The notes under the pieces are model-generated. The model was not told the DNA's origin. It did no database searches and saw nothing but the letters and a program-made list of their open reading frames with translations. From assembly GCA_947177685.1 (NCBI GenBank), contig CAMWVE010000009.1, positions 6,041 to 70,040 on the forward strand: a stretch of DNA of 64,000 nt, given 5' to 3'. This DNA comes from an uncultured Porphyromonadaceae bacterium (GTDB lineage Bacteria; Bacteroidota; Bacteroidia; Bacteroidales; Muribaculaceae). The translations under genes and the position numbers were made by a program. Shown here in pieces: positions 30,855 through 52,963 of this stretch (position 1 is the first letter of the stretch; every line of letters begins with the position of its first letter).

Positions 30855-32105
30855 ATGTCAACAGATATAACCCCCATGTTGCAGGCTGCCAGAACAGCTT
30901 CGCGACACCTCAATTCAATGACCGACGATGAACGCGCGGCAATAATCACCGAAGTAGCCGACCACCTTGAACAATCCATCCCGGCTATTCTTGAAGCCAA
31001 CAAAAAAGATTTGTCGCGGATGGACCCGTCAAATCCGAAATACGACCGTCTGGCTCTGACTGCCGACAGGATAAAGGCTATTGCTGCCGATACGCGACAT
31101 GTAGCGTCACTCCCCTCCCCCCTCGGACAGCTTGAACAGCGGGTGCTACCCAATGGTCTGGTGTTGACGAAACAGGCAGTGCCGTTTGGTGTCATCGGCG
31201 TTATCTACGAGGCACGCCCCAATGTTTCAGCCGATGTCTTTTCGCTATGCTTTAAAGTAGGGAATGCCGTTGTCCTCAAAGGGGGCAGCGACGCATCGGA
31301 CTCAAATACAGCCATCGTTGAAGTCATCCATTCCGTATTGGAAAAACATGGGGTCGACAAAGCAGCGGCAACACTGCTTCCTTCAACACACGAAGCCACC
31401 GCGCAACTGCTGCAGGCACGCGGGCTGGTTGACCTGCTGATTCCGCGCGGCTCACGTCGTCTCATCGACCGCGTCCGTGAGGAAGCCCGTATTCCGGTCA
31501 TAGAAACAGGAGCCGGAGTGTGCCACACTTTCATAGACCGGTCAGCCGACACAGCCATGGCTACCGCTATTGTCAACAACGGCAAGACCCGTCGCGTCAG
31601 CGTGTGCAACGCGCTGGACTGTGCCATAGTTCATGAGTCGCGACTCAGCGACCTCCCTGCCATCGTGGCTCCGCTCACCGAAAATAAGGTTGTAATATGG
31701 GCAGACGAGCCGTCATACAACGCTCTGGCGAACCACTATCCTGCGGAATTGTTGCGCCATGCTACCGATGAACAATTCGGAACCGAGTTTCTTGACTACG
31801 CCATGTCAATCAAGACCGTCAGCTCTGTTGAAAGAGCCATCGAACACATAAACCACTATGGTTCAGGGCACTCCGAAGCCATAGTCACTGCCGACGACAG
31901 CTCCGCATCGCTGTTCCGTCGCGACGTTGATGCAGCCTGTGTCTATGTCAACGCACCCACCTCCTTCACCGACGGCGCCCAGTTCGGACTTGGCGCGGAA
32001 ATAGGCATCTCCACCCAGAAGCTCCATGCCCGCGGTCCCATGGCACTGCGTGAAATCACCACCTACAAATGGCTCATCGACGGCAACGGACAAACCCGCC
32101 CGTGA
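30855..32105 (+). CDS. proA: glutamate-5-semialdehyde dehydrogenase (gamma-glutamyl phosphate reductase)
   Basis: The ATG at 30855 gives [61 protein letters not shown]. Confidence 0.9.
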
Positions 32106-32122
32106 CATTTAATATTACTGCA

Positions 32123-35100
32123 TTAATTTCTTTTTGTAAGCGATAAATCAACCATTAATACGGCATTTTCTTCTTGTAATGAACCTTTCGGGCGCCACGC
32201 CACAATAAAACGTATTGAAGCAGAACTAACCTTATAGCCCCTATCATTCCATTCCTGAAGCTCATTTTGCATCTTTTGTGAAAGTTGAGCAAGTGGCTTA
32301 TGCCCATTACATTCATAAAGATAGTTGTCGGCAAAACGAAGTTTTTGACCTGCCCTAAGGGCGAGTATCTCATTCTTTCGTTCTTTGAAAAATCCAAGAT
32401 TTACATCCTTATATGACAACTGTAGAACAATCTCATCGGGCATTCCGTATTGATCCTGATATATAATACGCTCATCCACCGGTATACCTTCAAAAAGAGA
32501 TGAATTCGTGTGAATAAACAATCGTTCTTTTGCTCTGGTTATCCCCACATAAAATCGCCGCATATCTTTATCCTGAATGATCTGAGGCTCATTTATTAGC
32601 ATGTAAACATCATCGAACTCACGTCCTTTAGACTTATGAATTGTAGAAACCACAACATCAGCATCGGATAAATCACAAAAATCCTCAATTGTTGATTCAA
32701 ATACAAATTCCTTAAAATCTGTGAGATACTTTGCTTTGTTTGTCTGTTCAAACAAAGAGATACAACGTTGCAGATAAGGAAGGCTCGTGGACTCAGCATA
32801 CATGGAGAATGTCTTTTGTTTAGCCTTGTCCCATAGTTCATCCGTAATTAACTGCGTTTGAGTGGCATGTTCCAATTGTTTAATAAACATCCTCGCTTCT
32901 GCCAGATTCCAAAACCGTAATCCGTTCATATTCTGCACCAGCTTGCTGTTTAATCCATGCTTTCTCAACAATGCTACAAGAATTACCGCATCCTCATTGG
33001 TCTGTGTCAAAACACACACAGATCCCATACGCCGATGTTTCAGTATATCTTCGACAAGAGGCTGGTACATTATCTTGGAAACATGATAGCGTAAGAACAC
33101 AGATCCTTTCTTATTGTTAATAGAAATAATCGGATCTGTTTTCATTCGTTCCTCTATTCTGCTGACGAAAGCATTTGCAAAATCAATCACATGACGTGAA
33201 CTGCGGTAGTTCTCGGTCATTTCAATAAATCGTGAACCGGATTCCTTTAGTAACTGTTTCATGTACTTCGGATCAGAACCACGGAATTCAAATATGTTTT
33301 GATCATCATCACCAACTGCAATAACACGCATCTCATCGTTGAATGATATAAGGGCATGAAGCAGCGCATACTCTCTTTCACTCATATCTTGCGCTTCATC
33401 TATTACCAAAACCGTCTTGGCAATACGATTTGGCTCCACATCTCCATTCACAATCATCTGAGCTGCCCTTGTCACTACATCTTTTGCCCCATCCAGACTA
33501 CCAATTTCACCCAACAAATCAAAACAATAGGAATGGAATGTCTTGATTTCAACAAAGTGGGCTGCATTTCCGATAAGTTCCAATAGTCTCTGCTTGAACT
33601 CTGTGGCTGCGGCACGCGAAAATGTAAGCATCAATAACTGCTCATGCTTAACATCCTCAAGCATGAGCAACGATGCAAGTTTATGTACCAACACACGCGT
33701 TTTTCCACTGCCGGGTCCTGCTGCCACCACTATACAGCGAGATTCCTTATCAGAAATAATCTCCATCTGCTTCTTTGACAAGGCTCCAAAAATATGATTA
33801 TATTTTTCAGGAGTGACGTTACGCTCAATTTCATTAGCCCGTTCTCCTTTAAAATATTTTGAAATAAAACGCCTGTAATCCATGTGGAAGTAATCATGAA
33901 CATACTGCAATGCTGCGCCATAATCCCTCACCATAAGATTAGCATATTCCCCCACAATGTGAATCTGCTGAATTTTTTGCTGGTAAAACTCACTCAGAAT
34001 GCGATAATCGCTTTGTTTATACTGGAATTTAGAATCTTTTATACGGCTGATATCCATAGCGTTATAAAGGACCATAAAACCTCCTTCAAGTTTTAATGCC
34101 CCTATCCTCGATAAATAGAGTAATGCCTCCTCAACATCTTCAAGTTGAGCATCACTCGCTGCCTCCATAAGATTATTCCCGTTTGACTTCAAGTCTTTCA
34201 ACAACTCCACTATGGAAAACTGAACTCCAATATTTTCCGATCCTTTTTCACTACCTTGCGATGCCTGATTGTATAGCCAATCAATTGTGAACTGACAAAT
34301 CATCAGTCGTTTCTCAAACTGTAACTGAAGGGTTGTCATTTCTGACTGGCATCTTAATTCAATGTTATTTATGCCATTTTCTTTTTTACGGATATAGCCT
34401 CTAACAGTGAGAAAATTTAATAAAGTTCGGATATCCTTTTCTGTCGAAATTGTTACTCCTTCTTTTTGAGCATTGTCATTAAGTTGCTTATAAGAGATAC
34501 GACATGTTTCGTTTGACAAACATACTAAAAGAAAACGTTCCAGTTTTGTGAATCGATCCAAAAGTCGTTTCGATTTATTTTCCGATACTCCGGCATCATG
34601 CAGATATACACAAAGATCTTTGGAGTCTGCAAGAATACCTTCTTGGCGCATACGAACCACATTAGAAACCACATCTTCCCTTCTGAGTCCAAGGATATCG
34701 GCAAGATAATCTATTCGCGACTCAGCCGCTACATCATGCGCTTTGCCAATATGCCTCTGTGTTATCAAGGACTTTATTATTCTAACGGCTGTTTCAATCT
34801 CATTTTTCTCAAAAAGCGTGGATTCAGTGATTCGCTGACGTGCTTCTTCCAAGTTATTTATAGTTATACCCGTAGCATAGACATGTGGCATATTATTTCC
34901 TCGCTCCAAATACCCGGCTTGCTCCAAAGCCGCCAATGCCGTGCGCACGCGAGTTTCGATATCAGACACCGAGTCATCCCAACCAGCCTGCCGCGCAATC
35001 TCCAATGCTGAACAGTTCACGCGCTTGCGATGCTTGGTTAAATCCTTCACTGCCTTCCATATCTGCTGTATTTCACTGATACTGAGCTTTGTTTGATTTA

Positions 35101-36988
35101 GAAGAATAAAATGCTTATCAAGATCCGAATCGCTATACAGTACGAAACAACGCGCTTCAAGTTGAGGGTCACGCCCTGCACGACCCGCCTCCTGAACGTA
35201 ATTCTCCAACGAGTCAGAAATATCGTAGTGTATAACCAATCCAACATCTTTTTTATCAACGCCCATTCCAAAGGCAGAAGTTGCCACAATTATTCGCACC
35301 TTGTCATTCATGAAGGCGTCCTGATTGGCAATCTTATCATCCACATCCATCTTGCCATCGAATGGCAATGCCTTGTAACCATCAAGTGTGAGTTTTGCAG
35401 CTAATTGTCTTGTACGTTTGGTGCGAGAAACATACACTATTGTAGGTGATGATGATTCAGCTATCAGTGAACGTAATTTCAAATATTTATCCTCTTCCGT
35501 GTCTACATGTATCACCGAATAACGCAGGTTAGTTCGAGCAGCTGACGAAGCAAAAATCTGAAGTTCAATATTGAGCATATTTTTAAAGTAATCACAGATG
35601 TCCTGTATTACCTTTTGCTTAGCGGTTGCAGTGAAACATGAAACTGGTATTGAACTACAACCTTTTTTCTTCTGATATTGCCTGATAAACTTTCCTATAT
35701 ACAGGTAATCCACCCTAAAATCCTGTCCCCAAGATGAAAAACAATGAGCTTCATCTATTACAATACGAACTAAATGGCGTGCAAGCAATATTTTTTCAAT
35801 CGTCTTTGAACGAAGCATCTCCGGAGAAATGTATAACAACGTGGCATCTCCATCCATAACGCGCCTTATAGCTTCTGCACGACTGATGGGATCCAACAAA
35901 CCATTGATTGTGACTGCGTCAGTTATACCTCTCTCTGCCAAATTATCCACCTGATCTTTCATTAGAGATTGCAGTGGTGATATAACAACCGTAAGACCAT
36001 GAACCAAACGACCTTCCATTAAAGCTGGTAACTGGAATGTCAACGATTTGCCACCACCCGTAGGAAAAACAGCTAAAAGTGATTTATGCTCTGCAGCCGC
36101 ACGAACAGCGTTTTCCTGCAGCGGTTCTCCATCATAAGTCCTGAACTTCTCAAAACCAAAAAAACGTTTGAGATTAACATGCACGTCAAGTTCTTTGTTG
36201 CAATAATAACACCCTTCGCTACATTTAGTATTCCTGAGAAGTCGCACCAGATTTTCTACATTCGGATAATTGTGCAGAACCCATGCTGGTGTTATAGACC
36301 GGTAATCAGTGGTATCAATCAATGCAAGCGCGTATGCCAGCTCACATGGATAATGCTTAATTGCACTTTCTATATCTGCATGTTGGCAAATCTTATCTTT
36401 ATACTCTGATCGAATCTGCGCTGCCAACGACTCTCTATTCCCTACTTTTGCATTAACGAAAGCCAAGAATCCTTTGAATTCATCCTGATCTTGGAGTAAG
36501 GTTGAAAATATCATCTGCATAGAATCAGGTAATTCTTTCCAATGCTCCACCTCTTCCATCAACAAATCTCGGGCTTTTTCACAATCGTTGACAGGATTGT
36601 TTAAATGTTCGACCTCCAACTTGTCATCCTTTACCAACCGATGATACGGACGTTCAGGGAATAGCAGCGGTGATAAATACAGAGTATCTACCAACTTATA
36701 ATCATTAGCATTGTCTCCAAACAAATACTTGGCATCATGATGGATAATGTTATGTCCGCAAACAAACTCCACATCATTAAGGAAAATAATCAACTCCCGC
36801 TTATTTGGGGAATGAAACACCGCACCATCCCATCTGATTGCCCCTATATCATGAATCTTTTTATCCCACAATCCAACCTCAGCATCGACAAAACTATAAC
36901 GTAAAGAATCCGAAGATTCTTTGCTCAAATTAGACAGTCTGTTTTCTGTTCCTGTTATGGTTTCGATTATTTTATTCCAAAAAGACAT
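32123..36988 (-). CDS. 1621-aa fusion protein: DEDD-like 3'-5' exonuclease + RecQ-family SF2 helicase + UvrD/PcrA-like SF1 helicase
   Basis: aa 35-37 FVDAEV and aa 78-85 GHNIIHHD (Exo I/II-like). aa 308-315 FPTGGGKS, 411-415 IDEAH, 569-607 ATSAFGMGVDK...YVQEAGRAGRD (RecQ motifs I, II, V, VI). aa 1088-1097 VAAGPGSGKT, 1195-1200 VIDEAQ, 1259-1262 ENYR, 1449-1458 TIHKSKGREF, 1481-1487 VGITRAK (UvrD motifs). Confidence 0.85.
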   Translation of the reverse strand: MSFWNKIIETITGTENRLSNLSKESSDSLRYSFVDAEVGLWDKKIHDIGAIRWDGAVFHSPNKRELIIFLNDVEFVCGHNIIHHDAKYLFGDNANDYKLVDTLYLSPLLFPERPYHRLVKDDKLEVEHLNNPVNDCEKARDLLMEEVEHWKELPDSMQMIFSTLLQDQDEFKGFLAFVNAKVGNRESLAAQIRSEYKDKICQHADIESAIKHYPCELAYALALIDTTDYRSITPAWVLHNYPNVENLVRLLRNTKCSEGCYYCNKELDVHVNLKRFFGFEKFRTYDGEPLQENAVRAAAEHKSLLAVFPTGGGKSLTFQLPALMEGRLVHGLTVVISPLQSLMKDQVDNLAERGITDAVTINGLLDPISRAEAIRRVMDGDATLLYISPEMLRSKTIEKILLARHLVRIVIDEAHCFSSWGQDFRVDYLYIGKFIRQYQKKKGCSSIPVSCFTATAKQKVIQDICDYFKNMLNIELQIFASSAARTNLRYSVIHVDTEEDKYLKLRSLIAESSSPTIVYVSRTKRTRQLAAKLTLDGYKALPFDGKMDVDDKIANQDAFMNDKVRIIVATSAFGMGVDKKDVGLVIHYDISDSLENYVQEAGRAGRDPQLEARCFVLYSDSDLDKHFILLNQTKLSISEIQQIWKAVKDLTKHRKRVNCSALEIARQAGWDDSVSDIETRVRTALAALEQAGYLERGNNMPHVYATGITINNLEEARQRITESTLFEKNEIETAVRIIKSLITQRHIGKAHDVAAESRIDYLADILGLRREDVVSNVVRMRQEGILADSKDLCVYLHDAGVSENKSKRLLDRFTKLERFLLVCLSNETCRISYKQLNDNAQKEGVTISTEKDIRTLLNFLTVRGYIRKKENGINNIELRCQSEMTTLQLQFEKRLMICQFTIDWLYNQASQGSEKGSENIGVQFSIVELLKDLKSNGNNLMEAASDAQLEDVEEALLYLSRIGALKLEGGFMVLYNAMDISRIKDSKFQYKQSDYRILSEFYQQKIQQIHIVGEYANLMVRDYGAALQYVHDYFHMDYRRFISKYFKGERANEIERNVTPEKYNHIFGALSKKQMEIISDKESRCIVVAAGPGSGKTRVLVHKLASLLMLEDVKHEQLLMLTFSRAAATEFKQRLLELIGNAAHFVEIKTFHSYCFDLLGEIGSLDGAKDVVTRAAQMIVNGDVEPNRIAKTVLVIDEAQDMSEREYALLHALISFNDEMRVIAVGDDDQNIFEFRGSDPKYMKQLLKESGSRFIEMTENYRSSRHVIDFANAFVSRIEERMKTDPIISINNKKGSVFLRYHVSKIMYQPLVEDILKHRRMGSVCVLTQTNEDAVILVALLRKHGLNSKLVQNMNGLRFWNLAEARMFIKQLEHATQTQLITDELWDKAKQKTFSMYAESTSLPYLQRCISLFEQTNKAKYLTDFKEFVFESTIEDFCDLSDADVVVSTIHKSKGREFDDVYMLINEPQIIQDKDMRRFYVGITRAKERLFIHTNSSLFEGIPVDERIIYQDQYGMPDEIVLQLSYKDVNLGFFKERKNEILALRAGQKLRFADNYLYECNGHKPLAQLSQKMQNELQEWNDRGYKVSSASIRFIVAWRPKGSLQEENAVLMVDLSLTKRN

Positions 36989-37208
36989 TTATCTCGTAAC
37001 TTGTAGTTTCCCATTTGATATGATAGCCATTATTTTGAGCTATGCAAATATAATGCAAAGATACAATATTATTCTGACATTCATTAGGCTTGAGATATAG
37101 ATTTTGCTACATGGAGTTCACCAGTCATAACACCAATTCTCATAAGTTTATAATACGCTTATTTTGTTGCGTTTTTAGGTATAAATTTACTATAATTCAT
37201 AAAAAAAT

Positions 37209-37242
37209 GAGTTGACTGTCGCGTATTTGCGAGGTCAACTCA
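37209..37242 (-). terminator. hairpin followed by a T-run on the minus strand (possible terminator; function uncertain)
   Basis: gagttgac ... gtcaactc 8-bp inverted arms (inner TCGC/GCGA extension). The minus strand continues ATTTTTTTAT. It lies about 400 nt downstream of the 37645 stop, so the assignment is uncertain. Confidence 0.35.
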
Positions 37243-37644: not shown

Positions 37645-38589
37645 TTAAACAAGTGAGTTCTGACGTTTATAATTCAGTATTTCCAGACAACGATAGTAGT
37701 TCTCTGCAAAATCAAAGTAGATTTCGTCTACGTCGTGCTCCTTACTGAAATCATATAGGGGGGCCCATATATCACATAATTTCAAGTTGTCATAATCCTC
37801 TATCTCTCTCTTCCAAAATTCCTTAATACCTTGGATTTCTGAAATAGGATTGTCCTTTAGGTTTTCCAGAGAAGATATTCTATTCATCAGATAATCCTTT
37901 TGAATACCATCTTTCATGTTCTTCAATTGTTCTTCAATTTCACTTACCTCATTATCAATACTGTCTATAATGGAAACCAACTCCATTTCTTTCACCTTTC
38001 CATAGTGAATAGGACAAAGTTCCATTAAATCATCCAGATTGTCTGATTTACTAATTATGAAAGAATTAGAATTCATATAAATGGTATTGTCTACAAAGAA
38101 GATTCCATTACTACTTGCTTCAAAGTTATCAACCATCCATATTGTATAAGGGAATTGTTTCACTATCTTTTCCCAATCACAAAGTCTACCTTCATTAACG
38201 CAGAATGAAAGATATTCACCATTTTCAGAAACAAACGCTCTTAATTGGAGATAGGTTTGTTTCTTGAAAGTATCTAAATCCAAATCAAGTCCCTGTATAA
38301 ATATACATTGAGATTGATTTAGCTCATTCTTGCAAAGACAAGTTATATCAGGTATCTGTGAGTTGATATACTCAAATGTTTTCGAAGGGACATAGATCGA
38401 ATCTCCGTGTTTAATAAAGTCAGTTGCTCCCAAATTTTTTAAGATTGTATTCAAGATTGCCTCCATTTGAAGATATCCCCCTTGGATTGACACAAGAGTG
38501 AAATGTTTTGTGTTGGATGCGTCGTTCTGAACATTTTCCAGGTTTTCTCCTGCATTGTTCATGGTTTTGTTGTTTCTTTTCTTTTCCAT
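37645..38589 (-). CDS. hypothetical protein (314 aa), island orphan
   Basis: Clean ATG ORF preceded by an island promoter box and a 123-nt conserved leader. No motif recognised; a coiled-coil-like segment lies around EIEEQLKNMKDGIQKD. Confidence 0.65.
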   Translation of the reverse strand: MEKKRNNKTMNNAGENLENVQNDASNTKHFTLVSIQGGYLQMEAILNTILKNLGATDFIKHGDSIYVPSKTFEYINSQIPDITCLCKNELNQSQCIFIQGLDLDLDTFKKQTYLQLRAFVSENGEYLSFCVNEGRLCDWEKIVKQFPYTIWMVDNFEASSNGIFFVDNTIYMNSNSFIISKSDNLDDLMELCPIHYGKVKEMELVSIIDSIDNEVSEIEEQLKNMKDGIQKDYLMNRISSLENLKDNPISEIQGIKEFWKREIEDYDNLKLCDIWAPLYDFSKEHDVDEIYFDFAENYYRCLEILNYKRQNSLV

Positions 38590-38750: not shown

Positions 38751-38845
38751 TAAAAATTCTTTCTGTTTTATTATCATTTCATCATTTCAACGAGAATGGT
38801 ATACCAATTTAAGTCTCAATTCCCATATAGATAGTTATAGAAAAA

Positions 38846-38877
38846 AGAGGATGGTGAAATAATCCTCACCATCCTCT
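38846..38877 (-). terminator. rho-independent terminator after integrase A
   Basis: Perfect 12-bp stem agaggatggtga / tcaccatcctct with an 8-nt loop. The minus strand is followed by TTTTTT. Lies 21 nt after the stop at 38898. Confidence 0.8.
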
Positions 38878-38897
38878 TATATATTATGTAGTATGAT

Positions 38898-40238
38898 TTA
38901 ATCGAAGTTGAAATCCAAACGCTCACTAACTATATCAATGAGAGTGCTCGGGAATAACTTGGCATAGACTTTTTCCGTTACGCTGGAAGTGGAATGACCC
39001 ATCAGATATGATATACTTTTTACATCCACACCTCTATTGAGGGCGAGACTTGCGAACGTATGGCGGGCTATGTGAAAGTGCAACCTAAATGGTAAGTTCA
39101 TCTTCTCGCCCATACATTGCAAGGATTGGTTCATTGTCTTGTTCCTACTGTTTATAGTCAGTTTAAGTTTCTCGCAATCATCCAAATCAAATTCATCCGG
39201 GAGCATACCGTATACAAAGTTATCATACCTACCTATCCATCGTTCCAGAATTTTCATACATTCTGTGGTGATCGGAAGATTTAACACAACAGGTCGCTTT
39301 GTATGATTTTTGACCTGAAGGTGCTTGATAATCCTCTGTTCCAGATTAACTTCCACCCACCTTAATGTACATACATCACTGAACCTCATACCTCCACAAT
39401 GGACAGAAAACAGAAACATATCCATTAACTCTTTCGTACGGGGATACTTGGATTGTTCAGTAAACTCAATAAGTTGCTTAACTTGTTCAGGTGTAAGATA
39501 GTCAACTTCATCAGTTGGTTTAGATAGTGATTTTACTTGAGTCGGTAAATATAATTCAAGGATTTCATCTGCGATTTCCTTTTTTATCCATCCAAGTCTC
39601 GCCATCTTCTTAACAGCTTTGAAGATAGGTGTCAAAGTCTTATTAATGGTATCATTAGTATTTCCCCGTTCTTTTCTCCATAATATGTAATCCTCAATAA
39701 TTTCTACCGTCAGGTCTTTACAATATAAGGTGGTGGACGGACAGGTGTCCCTGCCTTTTTGTTTTTGCAGAAACTTCCTGAAATTCCCCATATTACATTG
39801 TATGTTATGCCATACGCTATAACTTATCTTTTCTTTGTGATACTGACCCTCATTATGTTTGAGGACTTCATCAACAAAAGATACCTTACCCTTTTGAGCT
39901 GCCAGTTCCTGTTTATATGTCCCATTGAGGATACTCCTTAATATCGGGACAGTCATTTTGAAATCTTCATCTTCATTCAGTGTATCTATGATTTGGTCTA
40001 TCTCTTGTTTCTTCTTTGCCAATACCTTATTATATATATCAGCTTTGGGATGACCATTCTCACCATTGAGAATGAAGACATTTGATTTACCATCATCACC
40101 TAACCATAAATCAGGATGAATGAATATACCCATAGATTTCTTGACTGGAACACTATTGGTGGAATAGTATAAACATATACAATATTCACCAAATTCATTT
40201 GGTTTCCTGTCCTTTCTTAAAATATAGCGCCCGGTCAT
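38898..40238 (-). CDS. tyrosine site-specific recombinase / integrase A (Bacteroides-type with N-terminal Arm DNA-binding domain)
   Basis: MTGRYILRKDRKPNEFGEYCICLYYS (Arm-DNA-bind-like). Catalytic-domain motifs GGMRFSDVCTLRW (R), HIARHTFASL (HxxR), LMGHSTSSVTEKVYAKL (H...Y). Confidence 0.9.
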   Translation of the reverse strand: MTGRYILRKDRKPNEFGEYCICLYYSTNSVPVKKSMGIFIHPDLWLGDDGKSNVFILNGENGHPKADIYNKVLAKKKQEIDQIIDTLNEDEDFKMTVPILRSILNGTYKQELAAQKGKVSFVDEVLKHNEGQYHKEKISYSVWHNIQCNMGNFRKFLQKQKGRDTCPSTTLYCKDLTVEIIEDYILWRKERGNTNDTINKTLTPIFKAVKKMARLGWIKKEIADEILELYLPTQVKSLSKPTDEVDYLTPEQVKQLIEFTEQSKYPRTKELMDMFLFSVHCGGMRFSDVCTLRWVEVNLEQRIIKHLQVKNHTKRPVVLNLPITTECMKILERWIGRYDNFVYGMLPDEFDLDDCEKLKLTINSRNKTMNQSLQCMGEKMNLPFRLHFHIARHTFASLALNRGVDVKSISYLMGHSTSSVTEKVYAKLFPSTLIDIVSERLDFNFD

Positions 40239-40379
40239 ACTTGTTTAGGCTTATGGTTAAACAGAAAATTGATGAACATAAATGGAAGAGAAAGTATAAC
40301 TCCTATCTTCATAAGACATGCGGTTATGTCAATAAGTAGGTTGTAGATGGTTTGTATAAGTTTCAGTTCTTGAGGCATA

Positions 40380-41015
40380 TTATAGTATAAATTTTGATTT
40401 GAGTTTACGAAGTGTGTTGATTGAGGTGCCTGTTATAGCCTTGATATCTTTGAGTGTATTACCTTTTTCAAGGAGATATATTTCCTTGAAGTATTCCTTT
40501 TTGTAATCTATATCAGGCTTGATATATCCTTCTTTACGGCCTACTACTCCACCATTTTCACGATAGGTTTCATACCCTGCAGCCATTCTTGATCGAATGA
40601 GATTTCTCTCCATTTGATTGAATTGTGCGATTATACCACATACCAATGTTGCAATTGGATTGATTGTACCATCAGGTAATAGAGTTTCTAATCCATTTTG
40701 GAGAATGTATAATGAAACGCCCAGTTCGTTCAGTTCCTCTATGATATTTAAGAAATCTGCTGGCCTTCTTGAAAGTCTACTGCACTCGAATATTAGAATT
40801 TTGTCAACTCTATTTTCTTTGATAAAATCCATCAGTTCACACAGAGCCATACGTTCATACATTTTCTTTGCTCCTGAAATCTTTTCCTTGAACTCCTTTA
40901 TAACAATGTATGAGTTTTTCTTTGCAAAGTCGCGGAGTGATTTCAATTGGTGGTCGTAGTCCTGTGTAGAGGTACTGACCCTCGCATATATTACAACTCT
41001 CGTTTTATCGTCCAT
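40380..41015 (-). CDS. serine recombinase (resolvase/invertase family) with C-terminal HTH
   Basis: VVIYARVSTSTQDYDHQ (catalytic Ser motif), ILIFECSRLSRR, and a C-terminal LKDIKAITGTSINTLRKL HTH. The track start 41024 is a TTG; the ATG is at 41015. Confidence 0.88.
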   Translation of the reverse strand: MDDKTRVVIYARVSTSTQDYDHQLKSLRDFAKKNSYIVIKEFKEKISGAKKMYERMALCELMDFIKENRVDKILIFECSRLSRRPADFLNIIEELNELGVSLYILQNGLETLLPDGTINPIATLVCGIIAQFNQMERNLIRSRMAAGYETYRENGGVVGRKEGYIKPDIDYKKEYFKEIYLLEKGNTLKDIKAITGTSINTLRKLKSKFIL

Positions 41016-41239
41016 AAGTATCAATTTTATTATTAGGGGAAAAGTATCAATTTAATCTTTTAGAACCTTTATCCAAAAGTTTATGACTGCATTCAAATCA
41101 ACCTAAATGATTAATTTGCGTTTTTTGAATTTGTATATCTTTTTATCCATCTCATTTAATCTTGTTTGATTATTTTGACACCGCTAAAGTAGCCGTATTA
41201 TTCGAGACCACCAGGGGTAAACTAAAGAAAATGAGTAGT

Positions 41240-44084: not shown

Positions 44085-44174
44085 TAATTTAATATGTATA
44101 GATTTTTTTGATAATTCCCAACCTTCTAATCCAAAATGTATTAGTAAATTTGCAAACTAATTTTATTGAATTAT

Positions 44175-45359
44175 ATGGCACTTACCAACTATTGTATATA
44201 CAAATGGCTCATCTTTCTCCTTGAAACGGAAGCCGATGAACAGCATGGAATGACACTTAAAGATATAAACCAACGTTATCTGTGGGATAGAAAAGACATT
44301 TTTAAGTATATTCCATCGTCAGGTTGGACAAGGACAGGACTGCCTGATAGAAAGAAAGAATTGGTAGATGCAGAGGGTAAGAAATATACTGAATATCTTG
44401 ACCCGAAGATTACACCAAAGACATTCTTGCGATGGAGGCATTCCATATACGAACAATTTGGTCTTCTTATTCAGCAACCTATATTCAAGAATATAGTTCA
44501 AAACAGATACTATTTGGCTAACCCTGAATTATTGGATGAAAACAAGACCCTGCGTGAAACCCTTGAACATTTGGTTGATGAAGAAAAAAGAGGTTATGAA
44601 ACGAAAACACTTTTGACCGTCTCTCCGCGTGGCAGAAAGAAGAAAGCGGATGGTGTTTCCTCTGTTGGAAATAGTATGGGGTTTGTTTCTGTTGGTGGTT
44701 CAGATGTTGATTACCCTGACACACGACTTGGGTATCAGGATGAACCTGAAATGGTCGGTATCATACAATTTGTTATGTCCATTGGTGAAGCTCTTGTCAT
44801 CAAATATGGCAAGATGAAAAGACCTGGTGAGAAACGAGATAATGACAAGGATAAGAAATATGTACTTGAGCCCCAGCAACTCAAATGTATAAATGGTAGA
44901 TGGTATGTTGTAGGTAATCTGTATGAATATGGTAATAGGGAAACCTCTCATTTGGTCATATATGATGTCGAAAGGATAAGGTTGTGTGAGGATGAAGATA
45001 TACTTATCCCCCGATACCAAGTCAATGATGGTTTTGACATATACAATCTTATACCTGATGACTGGACTGACTACCTTGACCCGGACAAGGTTGTTTCGCT
45101 ATATCTAAAAACAACTGGACAGATTTTCGATGACCAACCATTCTGTCAGGCACAAATGAAGTTAGACGATTTGAGCGGAATAATGTACACGATCTATAAA
45201 GTGTATGTAAAACCTGATAAGGATTTTCTTATACAATACCTCGCCTATGGAGATGAAATGAGGGTTGTTGATATGTCGAAGAAGATAGAACCTTCAGATA
45301 CAGACATTACTCGGAAACAAATCAAATACTTGAATGATTTACGAAAGATAACATTGTAG
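44175..45359 (+). CDS. WYL-domain protein (putative HTH-WYL transcriptional regulator)
   Basis: LEPQQLKCINGRWYVVGNLYEYGNRETSHLVIYDVERIRL fits the WYL-domain core (g.WYl.g........r.f.l.RI). The track start 44166 is a TTG; the ATG is at 44175. Confidence 0.6.
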   Translation: MALTNYCIYKWLIFLLETEADEQHGMTLKDINQRYLWDRKDIFKYIPSSGWTRTGLPDRKKELVDAEGKKYTEYLDPKITPKTFLRWRHSIYEQFGLLIQQPIFKNIVQNRYYLANPELLDENKTLRETLEHLVDEEKRGYETKTLLTVSPRGRKKKADGVSSVGNSMGFVSVGGSDVDYPDTRLGYQDEPEMVGIIQFVMSIGEALVIKYGKMKRPGEKRDNDKDKKYVLEPQQLKCINGRWYVVGNLYEYGNRETSHLVIYDVERIRLCEDEDILIPRYQVNDGFDIYNLIPDDWTDYLDPDKVVSLYLKTTGQIFDDQPFCQAQMKLDDLSGIMYTIYKVYVKPDKDFLIQYLAYGDEMRVVDMSKKIEPSDTDITRKQIKYLNDLRKITL

Positions 45360-45364
45360 AAATC

Positions 45365-45381
45365 TACGAAACGTTTTCGTA
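45365..45381. promoter_or_regulatory. TACGAAA-cgt-TTTCGTA palindrome (island operator motif)
   Basis: Perfect 7-bp inverted half-sites with a 3-nt spacer, 6 nt after the stop of the WYL gene. Confidence 0.45.
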
Positions 45382-45396
45382 TACCATAAATGAATA

Positions 45397-45431
45397 AAAA
45401 GCCTCGCAAGGATTTTCCCTGTGAGGCTTTT
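45397..45431. terminator. bidirectional hairpin terminator
   Basis: aaaagcctcgca / tgtgaggctttt stem (one G-T pair) flanked by A- and T-runs. Lies between convergent genes. Confidence 0.65.
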
Positions 45432-45456
45432 ACAATGAATGTTTAAAAAGAGATAA

Positions 45457-45639
45457 TTACAATTTAACCTTCTTAATCTGATAATCCCACTTCTCAGGTG
45501 GAATACAATCTTCTAGTTTAAACTCTTTGGGAGGGTGTTCCCACAAGATTGTTTCTGGAATTTCAACAATCTTTCTCCCTTTAACATAGGTGAAATCAAC
45601 ACCTGTTCTTCTGTTTTTACGGGTTACGCTCCCTCCCAT
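45457..45639 (-). CDS. hypothetical small basic protein (60 aa)
   Basis: Overlaps the end of the upstream gene by 16 nt. Weak call based on position in the operon only. Confidence 0.4.
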   Translation of the reverse strand: MGGSVTRKNRRTGVDFTYVKGRKIVEIPETILWEHPPKEFKLEDCIPPEKWDYQIKKVKL

Positions 45640-45956
45640 TTCATACCTCTCTTTGTTAATTCCTCCTTTACTTCATTGATTTGATCAAGGTGGTAATTCC
45701 TATCCATTTCAACGTCATAAAGGCTTCGACCATTAAACTCAATAGAGGCTTTGTCGGAATGTTCTACCAACCTCATTTCCCTATCAAGGTTAGATAGTTC
45801 AACTTCAAGATTTGACCTTACCTCTAAGAGTTCTTCATTCGACAGTTTTTCATATTCATTTACTGTCTTTCTACCAACCTGACTGATTTCACAGCCATCA
45901 TTTTCAGACCACATTGTTCCCAACAACTGGTCTAATTCATTTACTCTTTTACTCAT
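45624..45956 (-). CDS. hypothetical coiled-coil protein (110 aa)
   Basis: The ATG at 45956 (MSKRVNELDQLLG) is preceded by the conserved leader motif taaacataacaaaagatttctc (45975-45996). Confidence 0.55.
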   Translation of the reverse strand: MSKRVNELDQLLGTMWSENDGCEISQVGRKTVNEYEKLSNEELLEVRSNLEVELSNLDREMRLVEHSDKASIEFNGRSLYDVEMDRNYHLDQINEVKEELTKRGMKWEGA

Positions 45957-46204
45957 AATTAAAATTTTATATTCTAAACATAACAAAAGATTTCTCTTTT
46001 TTCTTGTAATTGCTGATTTTTTTGAAATCTCAGTGATTTATGAGTTAAACGCACTGAAGATTAGACTCATCTGTAATATATTATCTCCATTAGCATTCTT
46101 CACTATGCTAGTCGCGTTTAAATATTTGATTATCATCAATATGTGAGTTTTGCACGAGCGCTGATATATTCTATACAATTTACATTTTGGATGTCTGAAT
46201 TGTA

Positions 46205-48934
46205 TTAATAAGATTGTATAGGTTTTGATACATCTACCTTATATATCTTTTTTTCACTCTTAACGACCTTATGACTTTTCCATTTCGTCAAATAACTGCA
46301 ACCATAAGTATCTCCTAACCATTTCTCGAAATCGTTTCTATCTGCATCATTCAATCTGTTCTTGATTATGAATAGAGCCTTATGCCTTGCTCCTTCTTCT
46401 AACTTATCTTTTGATTGGGTAAAATAGTCTTTTGCTTGGTCAAGTGTCCAAAGAGAAATTTTTGAAGAAACAGAAAATGCTGATTTGTTAAACTTTTGAG
46501 GTACAAATTCTTTGCTATTAGTGATTGCAATATTAATACTATCTACCAGTTCCTGTGATATATCTAATAATCGACCTTCATTTTCTATCCTTTGGTCGAA
46601 GTCATCCTTATTAACGTATGAATATAATGTATGCTGTTTGTCTTCATAATAACAGACCATATTGCGGATTGCTTTCAACACCTGTGCATTGTATTCACCT
46701 GTTAATGTCAAGGTGTGTTGAAGTGGGAAAATTACTCTGAATTTAGTCCAATCAGAGGTGATATTGCTGATTGTAGGATATGCTGTATATGATATATCTT
46801 TATATAGTTTACTGAAATCAGAGTATTTCAAACCACCGTCAATATCTACTATAATATGGTCAACACTATCCATTTCAGACTTACAATATCTGTATCTTTT
46901 GTTAGATACCTTATACATTTCACTGATTTTCGTTTGCTTGAAATTTTTTATAATACCCCAATCTTTATCCTTCTTCCTTAGTGGTAATCTGGAAACTTTA
47001 TCTTCATTTACCCAATCATACAAATAATTTCCTTTTAATGAATGGAATTTGTCAATTGCATCATTTAATGGAATAGTTATGGCATAGCAATGCGTTGAAT
47101 GGTCTATCTGATAAGAGATATTTCTGTCAAAAATACCCAATTTAGTAATGGTTAAATTATCACTTACTATAGTAGAACCATATTCACCATTACTTATTTG
47201 GGTATTTTTTACAGGATTATCTATCCTGATAATCATATATTCATTCTTATCTTCTCTATCTCTTGACCTTTCAAGAATGAGATAACTATCAAAAAGGTCA
47301 TAAAACATTCGTGATAATGTATCATAACTACATTCATATCCCATATACCTTATACAAGCAATCAAATAACTTGCTCGATATATCCCAAAAGTCTTGAACC
47401 CGAATGCTTCATATAGTTCATTAGGTGTAAGAATGGTTAAATCAACATTATCTGTGTTGCTATAAATTCTATACCAATCCTTAATCTTGGTTATACTTGA
47501 AGTCTTAAGCTTTTCTGAACCATAGGTATCATAGTATTTGGAGAGCATATAGTTATATTGGTATTGGTCATAGGTCAATGTTTCACCTGCGATAATCTTT
47601 TCTTTTGCAGCTTTGAATGAAAGTTTCTTCTTTGGGTCTCCTTTTACAAGTTCATCAATCTTACATTTTCTGACAATGTATTCCCCAGTATCACCTCTCA
47701 TATCTCTGAACAGTTCACATACATTATCAATAGATTTCCAAATCCTGTACCTGTCCAAAGTATCTTGAAGATTAAGTTGTTCCTGCTTCCATTTCACTCC
47801 AAATTCAAAATCACAGCAGTTCAATCCTTTATCCTCAATTTCCTTAATCTGTTTGTAAATCTTATCATATTCATTCTTCACCCTATTGTAATCAGATTTA
47901 TCGATACACCTATCCAATGCAAACACACATATACCAGATACTCCAGCTCTAAATCTCCCCAGCATTTGTTTAATCTCTCTTTGGGAATAACTGGTATAAC
48001 TGAATTGCTGTGAACCAATGATTATGCAAATATCAATATGTGTATCAATGTCGTGCCCTGTGAAGTAAGCACTGGTCATAAAATGAAGCTTCTTCCCCGG
48101 ATTGAATTCACTGCTGTAATACTCTCCAATGTCATTCTTGTTGGAAGAAGAACACAGAACCTCACAAGAGTTATCACCTATCTGATTAAGAATTTTCTGG
48201 ATTTCATTCACATTATTATAAAAGACACATATTTGTCTGTCAGAACCAAATTTGTCATTGCTATGGATTTGACGGATAATACTTTTCAAGTCCTTATTTA
48301 TTGTATAGACTTGAATACATTTATTTGATTGACCCTCATATTCGGTGCTATAGTCCAAGTTGTAGGTTATAATCTCTTTTTCTTTGACATAGGTTCTCAA
48401 ACAATCAACATATCCCCAATGAGGTGTCGCTGACATTAATACAATGCTATTATCCCAATTCTTAATCAGTTCAGTTACTTTATAACAGATACTCCTGAAC
48501 CCATTCTCGTCAATCAGCTTATGATACTCATCAATAACCACACACCGTCCGGACCAAAAATGTTCCATATCCATTCCATAATTAAGAAGCATTTGGTCCA
48601 ATTTGGGAAATTGATCGTAGGTTGCAATACACACAAGAGCATTGGGGTCTATGGTTTCACAACCACCATAGACACAGCATATATCAGGGTCAGACTTATA
48701 TTGTAATTCCTTGGATTTGGAGATAGATACATTGGGTACTAATATCAAGATACCCTTGAAGTTATTTTTGGCGTATTCTATAAAACCAGTGGTCCCACCA
48801 TTACCACAGAGAGATTTGTTTAAAACATTTATGTTTCTTGAATTGAACCACCTTTCATAAGTAGTAGGTTCAATAATTTCGTTCAGATAGAATTTACCCC
48901 TGTTGGGAATTTCATAATCATAATTGAATAACAT
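46205..48934 (-). CDS. 909-aa SF2 helicase-like protein with a C-terminal primase/replication-initiator-like region (putative island replication protein)
   Basis: Helicase motifs II VVIDEYH, III LMSATP and VI QMLGRFRAG. The motif I position reads CGNGGTTG, which has no Lys. The C-terminal HIIVDIDGG...TKFRVIFPL resembles the AEP-primase DxD motif and following strand (weak). Confidence 0.6.
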   Translation of the reverse strand: MLFNYDYEIPNRGKFYLNEIIEPTTYERWFNSRNINVLNKSLCGNGGTTGFIEYAKNNFKGILILVPNVSISKSKELQYKSDPDICCVYGGCETIDPNALVCIATYDQFPKLDQMLLNYGMDMEHFWSGRCVVIDEYHKLIDENGFRSICYKVTELIKNWDNSIVLMSATPHWGYVDCLRTYVKEKEIITYNLDYSTEYEGQSNKCIQVYTINKDLKSIIRQIHSNDKFGSDRQICVFYNNVNEIQKILNQIGDNSCEVLCSSSNKNDIGEYYSSEFNPGKKLHFMTSAYFTGHDIDTHIDICIIIGSQQFSYTSYSQREIKQMLGRFRAGVSGICVFALDRCIDKSDYNRVKNEYDKIYKQIKEIEDKGLNCCDFEFGVKWKQEQLNLQDTLDRYRIWKSIDNVCELFRDMRGDTGEYIVRKCKIDELVKGDPKKKLSFKAAKEKIIAGETLTYDQYQYNYMLSKYYDTYGSEKLKTSSITKIKDWYRIYSNTDNVDLTILTPNELYEAFGFKTFGIYRASYLIACIRYMGYECSYDTLSRMFYDLFDSYLILERSRDREDKNEYMIIRIDNPVKNTQISNGEYGSTIVSDNLTITKLGIFDRNISYQIDHSTHCYAITIPLNDAIDKFHSLKGNYLYDWVNEDKVSRLPLRKKDKDWGIIKNFKQTKISEMYKVSNKRYRYCKSEMDSVDHIIVDIDGGLKYSDFSKLYKDISYTAYPTISNITSDWTKFRVIFPLQHTLTLTGEYNAQVLKAIRNMVCYYEDKQHTLYSYVNKDDFDQRIENEGRLLDISQELVDSINIAITNSKEFVPQKFNKSAFSVSSKISLWTLDQAKDYFTQSKDKLEEGARHKALFIIKNRLNDADRNDFEKWLGDTYGCSYLTKWKSHKVVKSEKKIYKVDVSKPIQSY

Positions 48935-49319: not shown

Positions 49320-51269
49320 ATGGAAGATATGAACAAGAAGAACATTGTTGAAACAACAAAAGGTGTATTTGATATTGATGGTCAGTGCTGGACAGACAGA
49401 GATTTTTCACATCCAGAACGTACTATCCGCATCGCTACCAGTTTTTCAGGTATTGGTGCCCCGGAGGCAGCATTGGAAAGACTTGGACTTAAATCCCAAA
49501 TTGTATTTGCCTGTGATATAGGTGAGCGATACCTCAAATACAATTTCAAGCAGCTCAAGGAGTTTATCAAAGATTTCAATGAAGAAGACAAAGAAGCCTT
49601 TGCTTTGTCATTGTATGAAGAAAACAAGGCTGGCGTTGAATCGACAAGACAAATCATTGCCCGACACAAAGTTATGAAAGAAACAGGTAAAGAAGTTTCT
49701 ATTAGGGATGTGGATTATGAACCTATAACTCTTGATGATGTTAGGGAGAACCTATTGGGCGACAAACCCAAGTTGGATGATAAACTTGAACTGACGATAG
49801 ACTGTATTAGGATTATCTGTCGTAATAAGGGTATCACAAACTCAGAGGACATTGCTGCCTATGTATCGTCCTTATATGATCAAAAGGGGATGAACTGGCA
49901 GAAAGAGAGTTTCTTTGCAAATCATAAAATTGAAGAAAGTGCGTGGCATACAGACATAAGGTTTCTGGATGCAACCAAATACAGAGGTCTGGTTGATATA
50001 TATATTGGAGGTTCTCCATGCCCAAGTTATAGTCGAAGCGGAAAGAGACTTGGACTGGATGATATGAGAGGTACACTATTTTATGAATTTGCAAAGAGGA
50101 TAGAGGAGTGTCAACCCAAAATCTTCATTTTTGAGAATGTCAAGGGTATGATGGATGAGAAAGATGATATAAAGAGTGGTCTGGAAGCAGCTATTGAAGT
50201 CTTTCAAAGTCTTGGTTATGCAATCTATTGGCAGGTACTCAATGCAAAAGATTATGGGATACCACAAAATCGTGAACGTGTATGGGTCATAGGCTTTCGT
50301 GATAATGTGGATTTCAAGTATCCTGCTCCCATCCATTTAACAACAAGAATGTATGACTATCTGGATGACGATATTCTCCCCAGAAGCGGTAATGTAGATA
50401 CTCCTTTTGTCAGACACCTCACAGGTACTGAATGTTTGCGGTTAATGGGGTTCAAGGACTTCAAGATTGCACCTAAACTGATGGAACTTGAGTCTCCATT
50501 AAAACGAGATAGAATACTATGTCAGCAAGCCGGTAATAGTATGGTTGTTGATTGTCTAATGGCTCTGTTCAGACAAATGGACATAACCCAATATGGTGTT
50601 GAACTTGAAAAAGAAACTACAATGGAAGAAAATAAATATCTTGATAATTCTGTCTTGGAGAGTATGAGTGTTGCTGAACTATCAGACCTAATGGTTCAAG
50701 TGTCAACAATATTGAACAAGAAACTCCATATAACACCTGAATTGGATATAAAAGAAGAAAAGAATACAATTGAAGAAACCGCAACCCTAACTGTCAGTGA
50801 ACCCCGCCAAGTTAAGCACGAAATTGTTTCGTGCGATGACGATAAAGCAGGGATATGGAATATCCAGGAAATTGATTTGATGAACGTAGATACTGACGAA
50901 GACAAACCTACTGAAACATTCAAAGTTAATATCCTTGATGAGATAGATTTATCTGGCGCTCCTGTCAAGAAGATAATTAAAGTTGGTGCAGAAGTCAGTC
51001 AGAAAGTCAAGGAAGAGATAGATAAGATAAGGGAAGTATGGCTTGAAGCAGGTGGAGATGTCATGGAATATTACGAAAAGACACGAAAAAAACACGATTC
51101 ACAATGGAACAGAGTGTTGAGTCCGAATGGTATATGTTCAACAATTACAAAAACAGAACCCCCATTTATCCTTGTAGGCAATGAGGTTCCGACCAACACT
51201 GACCCAGTGGAGATAGAAATAGAGTTAGATCGAGACAAACCAACTGATACACCAGAACCCCTGTGGTAA
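49320..51269 (+). CDS. atypical DNA (cytosine-5)-methyltransferase (649 aa) with a large insertion and a C-terminal extension
   Basis: Motif I FSGIGAPE (aa 42-49), IV GGSPCPSYS (230-238), VI ENVKGM (272-277), VIII QNRERVWVIGF (316-326), IX-like LTGTECLRLMGF, X QAGNSMVV (403-410). There is an insertion of about 130 aa between motifs II and III, and a tail of about 240 aa after motif X. Confidence 0.85.
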   Translation: MEDMNKKNIVETTKGVFDIDGQCWTDRDFSHPERTIRIATSFSGIGAPEAALERLGLKSQIVFACDIGERYLKYNFKQLKEFIKDFNEEDKEAFALSLYEENKAGVESTRQIIARHKVMKETGKEVSIRDVDYEPITLDDVRENLLGDKPKLDDKLELTIDCIRIICRNKGITNSEDIAAYVSSLYDQKGMNWQKESFFANHKIEESAWHTDIRFLDATKYRGLVDIYIGGSPCPSYSRSGKRLGLDDMRGTLFYEFAKRIEECQPKIFIFENVKGMMDEKDDIKSGLEAAIEVFQSLGYAIYWQVLNAKDYGIPQNRERVWVIGFRDNVDFKYPAPIHLTTRMYDYLDDDILPRSGNVDTPFVRHLTGTECLRLMGFKDFKIAPKLMELESPLKRDRILCQQAGNSMVVDCLMALFRQMDITQYGVELEKETTMEENKYLDNSVLESMSVAELSDLMVQVSTILNKKLHITPELDIKEEKNTIEETATLTVSEPRQVKHEIVSCDDDKAGIWNIQEIDLMNVDTDEDKPTETFKVNILDEIDLSGAPVKKIIKVGAEVSQKVKEEIDKIREVWLEAGGDVMEYYEKTRKKHDSQWNRVLSPNGICSTITKTEPPFILVGNEVPTNTDPVEIEIELDRDKPTDTPEPLW

Positions 51270-51346
51270 GTAAGATTGGGTAGGTAAGCAAAGAAAAATA
51301 GAATGGCGGATGAGAGATTGTATATCTTTTCATCCGCTATCGGGTT

Positions 51347-52960: not shown

Positions 52961-52963
52961 ACT

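Follow-up and report, generated by a model that had tools for sequence, protein, structure and literature searches.

Helicases coupled to a nuclease are known in several forms. In WRN, a DnaQ-fold 3'-5' exonuclease lies N-terminal to a RecQ-family core within one chain, and in Staphylococcus aureus DinG an N-terminal epsilon-like exonuclease is fused to an XPD-like 5'-3' helicase of superfamily 2 (SF2) with an Fe-S domain. RecBCD, AddAB and AdnAB are multi-subunit enzymes with RecB-type PD-(D/E)xK nucleases, and the motors of RecBCD run with opposite polarity. The gene described here, found in a 64,000-nucleotide stretch of an uncultured Porphyromonadaceae bacterium of the Muribaculaceae (contig CAMWVE010000009.1, positions 6,041 to 70,040; hereafter the window), encodes a single 1621-aa protein which joins a predicted DnaQ-like exonuclease to both a RecQ-type SF2 motor and a UvrD-type motor of superfamily 1A (SF1A). 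It is an accessory gene with a patchy distribution, horizontally mobile between phyla and onto plasmids, and its product is tentatively read as a processor of 3' DNA ends that is used in conflicts with foreign DNA.

One gene with three enzymatic modules

The open reading frame (ORF) starts with ATG and contains no internal stops (Table 1). All ten motifs on which the initial annotation had based its single-polypeptide claim were recovered in one frame, namely FVDAEV (residue 33), GHNIIHHD (78), GGGKS (311), DEAH (412), QEAGRAGRD (599), GPGSGKT (1091), DEAQ (1197), ENYR (1259), TIHKSKGREF (1449) and VGITRAK (1481). The identical protein (P0001) is present in two independent assemblies, and the same uninterrupted frame, at 51-80% identity, is kept in more than 240 protein clusters and 80 genome loci, as well as on proteobacterial plasmids of finished genomes. 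With hundreds of full-length relatives, a sequencing-merged pair of genes is ruled out, and the wider notion that two or three genes were joined by a sequencing or assembly error is practically inconceivable.

Table 1. Features of the helicase gene and its upstream region (window coordinates).
Feature	Position	Strand	Basis or remark
Complete ORF; exonuclease, RecQ-like and UvrD-like modules in one polypeptide	32123..36988	-	1621 aa plus stop codon (32123-32125)
Predicted DnaQ-like (DEDD-type) 3'-5' exonuclease domain, residues 30-152	36533..36901	-	AlphaFold2 fold, Foldseek, invariant residues
Alpha-helical domain with four invariant Cys, residues 153-272	36173..36532	-	model and alignment
RecQ-family SF2 helicase core, residues 273-650	35039..36172	-	domain models, closest structures
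Linker region of ~415 aa with winged helix, residues 651-1065	33794..35038	-	sub-threshold winged helix-turn-helix matches
UvrD/PcrA/Rep-type SF1A helicase core, residues 1066-1495	32504..33793	-	domain models; compact, ~430 aa
Short linker and C-terminal six-stranded beta-rich domain with one long helix, residues 1496-1621	32126..32503	-	model
Two candidate Bacteroidetes-type -7 promoter boxes (TAnnTTTG: TATATTTG, TATCTTTG)	37045..37063	-	sequence reading
Hairpin and T-run (GAGTTGAC...GTCAACTC-ATTTTTTT), putative terminator of the 314-aa ORF	37201..37241	-	read directly from the sequence

The N-terminal domain escapes sequence comparison: residues 1-270 match no Pfam family at E<=10, and neither phmmer nor a 29-sequence profile found a counterpart in the PDB. 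An AlphaFold2 model built from an alignment of two clades (predicted local distance difference test, pLDDT, 83.5; predicted template modelling score, pTM, 0.79) has the topology b1-b2-b3-aA-b4-aB-b5-aC, as in RNase H-like exonucleases, followed by the helical domain. Its top Foldseek matches in the PDB were almost all DEDD exonuclease domains, with S. aureus DinG (8zef_A) the best at a modest E of 4.9e-4 and a probability of 1.00, and with family-B polymerase exonuclease domains, NrnC, oligoribonuclease and EXD2 among the others. The motifs were placed at D35/E37 (Exo I), H79-N80...H84-D85 (Exo II) and D135 (Exo III). The model puts D35 and E37 on b1, while D85 begins aB and D135 begins the last helix. 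None of the four varies among 71 species-level homologues, and homologues at ~30% identity show the textbook Exo II motif GHNxIxFD. The DEDD-like exonuclease proposed in the initial annotation is thus supported by the predicted fold and the metal-ligand residues, without support at the sequence level.

At the place of the fifth DEDD residue, which is His five positions before the last Asp in DEDDh enzymes and Tyr four positions before it in DEDDy enzymes, the family has the invariant N130/N131. A conserved flexible loop, PYHxLxKDDKL (residues 114-124, pLDDT <50), carries an invariant H116, which might substitute for the missing catalytic His/Tyr. The helical domain that follows contains the invariant cysteines C201, C256, C260 and C263, the last three arranged as CX3CX2C at 256-263, and these four probably form a metal-binding site. 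Firmicutes members have CX2CX2C instead, and the Aliarcobacter homologue lacks the cluster. A weak Pfam match to Radical_SAM, which arose from the CX3CX2C motif, was dismissed as spurious.

Both helicase motif sets of the initial annotation were borne out by domain models. The RecQ core shows motif 0 (FGFxxFR..Q), the Walker A motif GGGKS, DEAH and QEAGRAGRD, conserved in all homologues, with Pfam matches to DEAD (6e-29) and Helicase_C (2e-21) over residues 289-606 and a score of 270.4 bits against the NCBIfam family model recQ_fam (TIGR00614, cut-off 219.8), the match ending at residue 636. The closest solved structures are RECQ5, Escherichia coli RecQ (1oyw), RECQ1, BLM and WRN, with E between 1e-38 and 1e-54. 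No RecQ_Zn_bind, RQC or HRDC domain was matched in Pfam at E<=0.1, and no Cys cluster follows motif VI. The UvrD module carries the Q motif, GPGSGKT, DEAQ, GDDDQ, ENYR, TIHKSKGREF and VGITRAK, with motifs Q, I, Ia, II, III, IV, V and VI aligned, and matches UvrD-helicase (PF00580, 7e-32, 111.6 bits, cut-off 23), UvrD_C (PF13361, 3e-18, 66.9 bits, cut-off 25.6) and AAA_19 over residues 1071-1496; its closest solved structures are PcrA, UvrD, UvrD1, Rep and GajB. The protein is an orthologue of neither RecQ nor UvrD, because its equivalog scores fall far below the cut-offs: TIGR01389 gave 313.7 bits against 640.2 and NF008279 gave 239 against 1015 for RecQ, and the models for uvrD, pcrA and rep gave 110 against 1144, 127 against 911 and 103 against 951, respectively.

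The region between the two motors has no sequence match in the PDB, and sub-threshold matches in 9 of 12 members place at least one winged helix (MarR/TrmB/Crp-like) near residues 760-800. The C-terminal domain is modelled with a pLDDT of 89.9. Neither Pfam nor a profile search of the PDB matched it, and Foldseek against the PDB and BFVD returned nothing significant; weak HIRAN-containing entries (Rad5, 6l8o, E 0.17; a phage HIRAN protein, E 0.12) are only a lead. No solved structure matches the whole architecture.

Distribution and conservation of the family

At least 592 species-level genomes of four phyla contain a full-length homologue (51-80% identity), among them genomes of Bacteroidales (more than 120 clusters at 72-80% identity), Clostridia, Kiritimatiellia and Sphaerochaetaceae. 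A second clade of ~1590 aa is found in Oscillospiraceae, Lachnospiraceae and Ruminococcus, and 22 plasmid or chromid records carry a homologue at >=80% coverage, those at 30-34% identity including records from Aliarcobacter, Rhizobium, Cereibacter, Croceicoccus, Sulfitobacter, Allochromatium and Thiothrix. An exhaustive search with a profile of the N-terminal domain collected 1487 representative clusters. The best 150 of these are all full-length proteins of ~1600 aa or fragments thereof, so that among them the domain is confined to this architecture. The architecture, which had been called unusual, is therefore uncharacterised but by no means rare.

The homologue was full length at all 83 loci examined, and natural split or UvrD-less versions were dismissed, the representatives of intermediate length being truncations. 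One Firmicutes lineage has its copy predicted as two ORFs, P0461 (1130 aa) and P0462 (473 aa), which belong to the cluster of P0178, together make up the full length and occur on 10-11 contigs, one of 228 kb. Because the break falls inside the UvrD module, the pair represents an allele, frameshifted or pseudogenised, that recurs, and not a split at a domain boundary.

Purifying selection on the catalytic residues is strict in all three modules. K314, D412, E413, R603 and R606 of the RecQ core and K1096, D1197, E1198, R1262 and R1485 of the UvrD module are invariant in the 71 homologues, and the catalytic residues of all three modules are kept at ~30% identity in Campylobacterota and Proteobacteria. 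Judged from these residues, all three modules look catalytically competent. Mean pairwise identity is highest in the RecQ core (76%) and lowest, among folded parts, in the C-terminal and helical/Cys domains (45%).

The homologues are not core, syntenic genes, an outcome that would have told against the initial annotation: their distribution is patchy, their positions are unrelated and they have been transferred horizontally. At 39 of 69 loci the gene and its flanks differ in GC content by more than 3%. Copies of the Bacteroidales type, at 63-79% identity, were also met in metagenome-assembled genomes (MAGs) from outside the Bacteroidota, in Dysosmobacter segnis (L029), Sphaerochaetaceae (L040) and Lachnospiraceae (P0019); some of these out-of-phylum copies lie on short contigs (11.9 kb for L029 and 4.5 kb for L040), and they reflect either very recent cross-phylum transfer or binning contamination.

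Genomic neighbourhoods of the homologues

All-against-all clustering of 953 ORFs from the 83 loci revealed no conserved partner gene. The gene is solitary, always encoding one fused chain, and its contexts are unrelated, with 168 Pfam families among 141 immediately neighbouring proteins. About 10-17% of these neighbours match known or candidate defence families, a fraction which, counted without a matched control set, lies above what would be expected for random genes. PADLOC models hit among the 141 were SoFic, PDC-S04 and PDC-S24 (4 each), PbeA (3) and PDC-S05, PDC-S23 and PDC-S27 (2 each), and the accessory or defence-type Pfam families include AAA_14, Fic, ATPase_2/DUF234, ResIII, RhuM, a McrB-like AAA_5 and nSTAND3. 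One homologue adjoins HigBA, others lie near the toxin modules HipA, Doc and YoeB, another near WYL and Cas6, and the copy on Allochromatium pALVIN01 adjoins hsdRMS and an HNH gene. Small genes annotated as '3'-5' exonuclease' were seen downstream of two plasmid-borne homologues, at 1.5 kb in Thiothrix pTfr153 (L088, 14658-15239) and at 8.5 kb in pALVIN01 (L086, 23566-24176).

Several copies lie beside genes of replicons or mobile genetic elements (MGEs), some of them at elements that carry an integrase. On Aliarcobacter pACIB the homologue is divergent from parA-parB and rep/dnaB, in Ruminococcus bicirculans it sits within a decayed integrative and conjugative element (ICE) with an excisionase-like HTH_17 gene just upstream, and in a Bacteroides finegoldii record a ParA/ParG/SSB block stands beside it, with nfo ~6.5 kb upstream and ssb genes 2.5-6 kb downstream. 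A gene for a type IV secretion system (T4SS) coupling protein was noted 0.9 kb downstream of the pACIB homologue (L085, 15684-17300), and a TraG/VirD4 fragment 0.4 kb downstream of that of R. bicirculans (L133, 15167-15490). The recurrence of such a TraG/VirD4/TrwB-type gene in two distant lineages could be coincidence or could point to a link with conjugative DNA processing.

For most homologues an integrase was not found nearby, and most chromosomal copies are without MGE genes within 10 kb; one copy lies near dprA and others among plain metabolic genes. No relaxase or T4SS family is among the recurrent neighbours. MOB-suite classed 205 of 259 matching plasmid records, those with partial hits included, as non-mobilizable. 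The fusion was not found in the phage genomes of INPHARED, and the ~13 matches in IMG/VR had integrase, invertase, HNH and methylase genes among their neighbours and no structural phage genes.

Proposed mechanism and competing explanations

RecQ and UvrD motor families both translocate 3'->5' on single-stranded DNA (ssDNA), and a 3' end is what the nuclease requires; hence the protein is best understood as built around 3'-ended or branched DNA. From the N to the C terminus, a DnaQ-like 3'-5' exonuclease, a RecQ-type motor, a winged-helix linker, a UvrD-type motor and a capping beta-domain would act on DNA whose 3' end is free or recessed, or on a branched intermediate such as a fork, a D-loop or rolling-circle or conjugative ssDNA. 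The motors would unwind the DNA and strip proteins from it while the exonuclease trims the exposed 3' end, and the winged-helix linker together with the C-terminal domain, whose variability would suit a specificity domain, may select the substrate. In such a role the protein would be a stand-alone effector which defends either the host or its own carrier element when phage or plasmid DNA enters.

A horizontally mobile, single-protein processor of 3' DNA ends that is used in conflicts with foreign DNA, and is not a housekeeping repair enzyme, is the preferred reading, held with a probability of about 0.4. The preference for an immunity or element factor over a repair enzyme, already voiced in the initial annotation, draws on the three modules, the invariably fused and solitary state, the mobility and some defence-type and MGE neighbours. 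A number of results weigh against it. Most of the 141 immediate neighbours are metabolic or housekeeping genes, and the defence-type fraction is well below that of classical defence families. PADLOC v2 gave no full-length match, only domain-level ones to DpdF, PsyrT and GajB; a literature search found no description of the whole architecture or of any family member; and some species keep the gene stably, among them R. bicirculans, where it is very prevalent. An identity of 76% in the RecQ core is high for an immunity gene, exonuclease activity is not assured because N130/N131 replace the canonical His/Tyr, and two motors of the same polarity lack a worked-out joint mechanism. The more specific proposal of a previously unrecognised single-gene immune system, which recognises and destroys the 3'-ended or branched intermediates that phages and plasmids form in replication or transfer, with its motors working on opposite strands or in tandem, is put forward as doubtful.

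A serious contender, though itself somewhat unlikely, is accessory genome maintenance, in which a WRN-like exonuclease-RecQ unit and a UvrD-type anti-recombinase or protein-stripping motor serve stalled forks, gaps or recombination intermediates that arise on the cell's own chromosome or on a large replicon. The exonuclease-then-RecQ order and the closest relatives of the RecQ core (RECQ5, RecQ, BLM and WRN) fit this explanation, as do the high conservation under purifying selection, the many housekeeping neighbours, the copies near dprA or near nfo and ssb, and the stable presence in R. bicirculans; the weak HIRAN-like leads from both structure libraries also agree with it, HIRAN domains being known to bind 3' ends at forks. 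It is less easily reconciled with the patchy distribution and cross-phylum transfer, the variable, non-syntenic positions, the carriage on plasmids and decayed MGEs and the atypical GC content in the window, nor would a RecQ repair helicase be expected to lack orthology to RecQ or UvrD along with the RQC and HRDC domains that such helicases use. Cargo of a plasmid or ICE is an unlikely alternative in which the gene would serve its element through support of replication or partition, processing of transferred ssDNA, establishment in the recipient or exclusion of competitors. The settings on pACIB, in the R. bicirculans ICE remnant and in the B. finegoldii record speak for such a service, together with the 22 plasmid or chromid records, but it would leave the many chromosomal copies remote from MGE genes unexplained, and the lack of recurrent relaxase or T4SS neighbours, the preponderance of non-mobilizable records (partial matches counted) and the fact that no island gene of the window is linked to the family argue against it.

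Local setting and the adjacent island

The gene converges on proA, whose stop codon (32103-32105) is followed by a 17-bp gap before the helicase stop codon, which confirms the close abutment described earlier. Across these 17 bp the GC content drops abruptly from 55% to 40%: it is 55.3% in proBA, 40.0% in the helicase gene (36.6% at third codon positions, GC3) and 34.8% in the island on the other side. The description of the gene as AT-rich like the island is hence only approximate, because its GC content, although below that of proBA, does not go down to the island value but falls between the two. The candidate -7 boxes lie 56 and 67 nt upstream of the helicase ATG and follow the TAnnTTTG consensus established for Bacteroides promoters, so that the gene appears to be driven by a promoter of its own. 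The upstream hairpin, which was absent from the output of a simple scan and was seen by direct reading, would separate the helicase transcriptionally from the 314-aa ORF.

The assignment of the gene to the mobile island did not survive. In tblastn searches against all fetched loci, 15 island proteins, including the 314-aa ORF, the tyrosine integrase, the resolvase, a WYL protein, a Cas3-like helicase, methylases and a McrBC-like pair, were found beside no homologue except in the same strain. Since no island gene travels with the homologues, the gene lies beside the island and not in it. Adjacency and a GC content lower than that of the host are what one would see if the gene functioned as part of the AT-rich island (integrase, resolvase, WYL, Cas3-like helicase, methylase-McrBC), but with the terminator and separate candidate promoter boxes in between, a GC content of 40% against 35%, and no island protein beside the homologues elsewhere, such membership is very improbable. 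The helicase gene was acquired separately and lies between proA and a defence island which bears an integrase and is unrelated to it.

Other genes of this region deserve a brief description. The 314-aa ORF (37645-38589), between the helicase and the integrase, has only a marginal spectrin-repeat match and was found in the same strain only, the contig of the second assembly breaking inside it. A strong bidirectional hairpin (38845-38878) separates it from the tyrosine integrase (446 aa, Arm-DNA-bind_5 and SAM-like), which adjoins a serine recombinase/resolvase (214 aa; the pair at 38898-41024) and with it forms the edge of an island of 32-38% GC extending past the end of the window. Further on (44166-48934), a WYL-domain protein (397 aa, plus strand) stands beside a 909-aa DEAD/ResIII helicase (46205-48934, minus strand) with weak Cas3-like PADLOC matches and a weak AsnA-like C-terminal match, and the two may be a regulator-effector pair. 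An operon-like minus-strand block with overlapping stops and starts, in the region 49320-58010, contains a 345-aa C5-methylase (56973-58010), a 711-aa McrB-like AAA_5 protein (54841-56976), a 626-aa McrC-family protein (52964-54844) and a 537-aa ORF without a match (51347-52960); a second C5-methylase of 649 aa lies on the plus strand (49320-51269). Two 5-methylcytosine (m5C) methylases with McrB- and McrC-like subunits presumably recall LlaJI-type restriction-modification systems.

Significance and comparison with known systems

Were the preferred reading true, the family would be a very widespread, unstudied protein of defence or DNA conflict, carried by dominant gut bacteria (Prevotella, Bacteroides, Muribaculaceae, Ruminococcus bicirculans); as a single-gene immune system, it would have a motor pairing unlike that of any studied helicase-nuclease. 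Its members abound in the gut microbiome of humans and animals and are present on proteobacterial plasmids as well. Independently of function, the protein naturally unites helicases of two superfamilies with a proofreading-type exonuclease, and is thereby a compact model for the cooperation of two 3'-5' motors with a 3' exonuclease and a bacterial counterpart to WRN. Public records name the homologues 'RecQ family ATP-dependent DNA helicase', an annotation that leaves two of the three enzymatic modules unmentioned and is corrected by the present analysis.

Among defence systems, the likeness is confined to single domains. The UvrD module shares the full SF1A motif set with Gabija GajB and with UvrD, PcrA and Rep, and matches GajB structures and PADLOC GajB models, but these matches are at the domain level; no GajA (OLD family) is among the window neighbours, and the 83 loci have no conserved neighbour. 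HamA (DUF1837) of Hachiman is absent from the window neighbours scanned and from the list of the 25 commonest families among the 141 homologue neighbours. The highest PADLOC scores, for DpdF (9e-95) and PsyrT (RqlH; 3e-77), cover only the RecQ core (residues 267-661). DpdF itself (NF041063) scored 207 against 550, with no dpd cluster around the gene, and neither a conserved adjacent gene nor a PsyrA antitoxin of the PsyrTA (RqlHI) type was found; in the window its neighbours are proA, which converges on it, and, beyond the putative terminator, an ORF found only in this strain.

Closer parallels are offered by enzymes that process DNA ends. RecBCD, AddAB and AdnAB resemble the present protein in uniting two motors and nuclease activity in one such machine, which here consists of one chain with an SF2 and an SF1 motor, both of 3'-5' families, and a DEDD-type exonuclease by prediction; no PD-(D/E)xK-type (PDDEXK) nuclease was matched in Pfam, either in the whole protein or in its C-terminal piece. 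S. aureus DinG, the best structural match of the N-terminal domain, follows a like plan, with an exonuclease joined N-terminally to its helicase, the motors here being of RecQ and UvrD type instead. WRN likewise combines a DnaQ-fold exonuclease with a RecQ core in the same order. In contrast to WRN, the present protein has no RQC or HRDC domain but carries a UvrD-type SF1 motor in addition and ends in a novel domain; its exonuclease lacks the canonical Tyr/His and could not be linked by sequence to the RNase D/WRN exonuclease family, and it is bacterial and horizontally mobile. While a member of none of these groups, the protein would work most like the exonuclease-linked helicases and the dual-motor helicase-nucleases.

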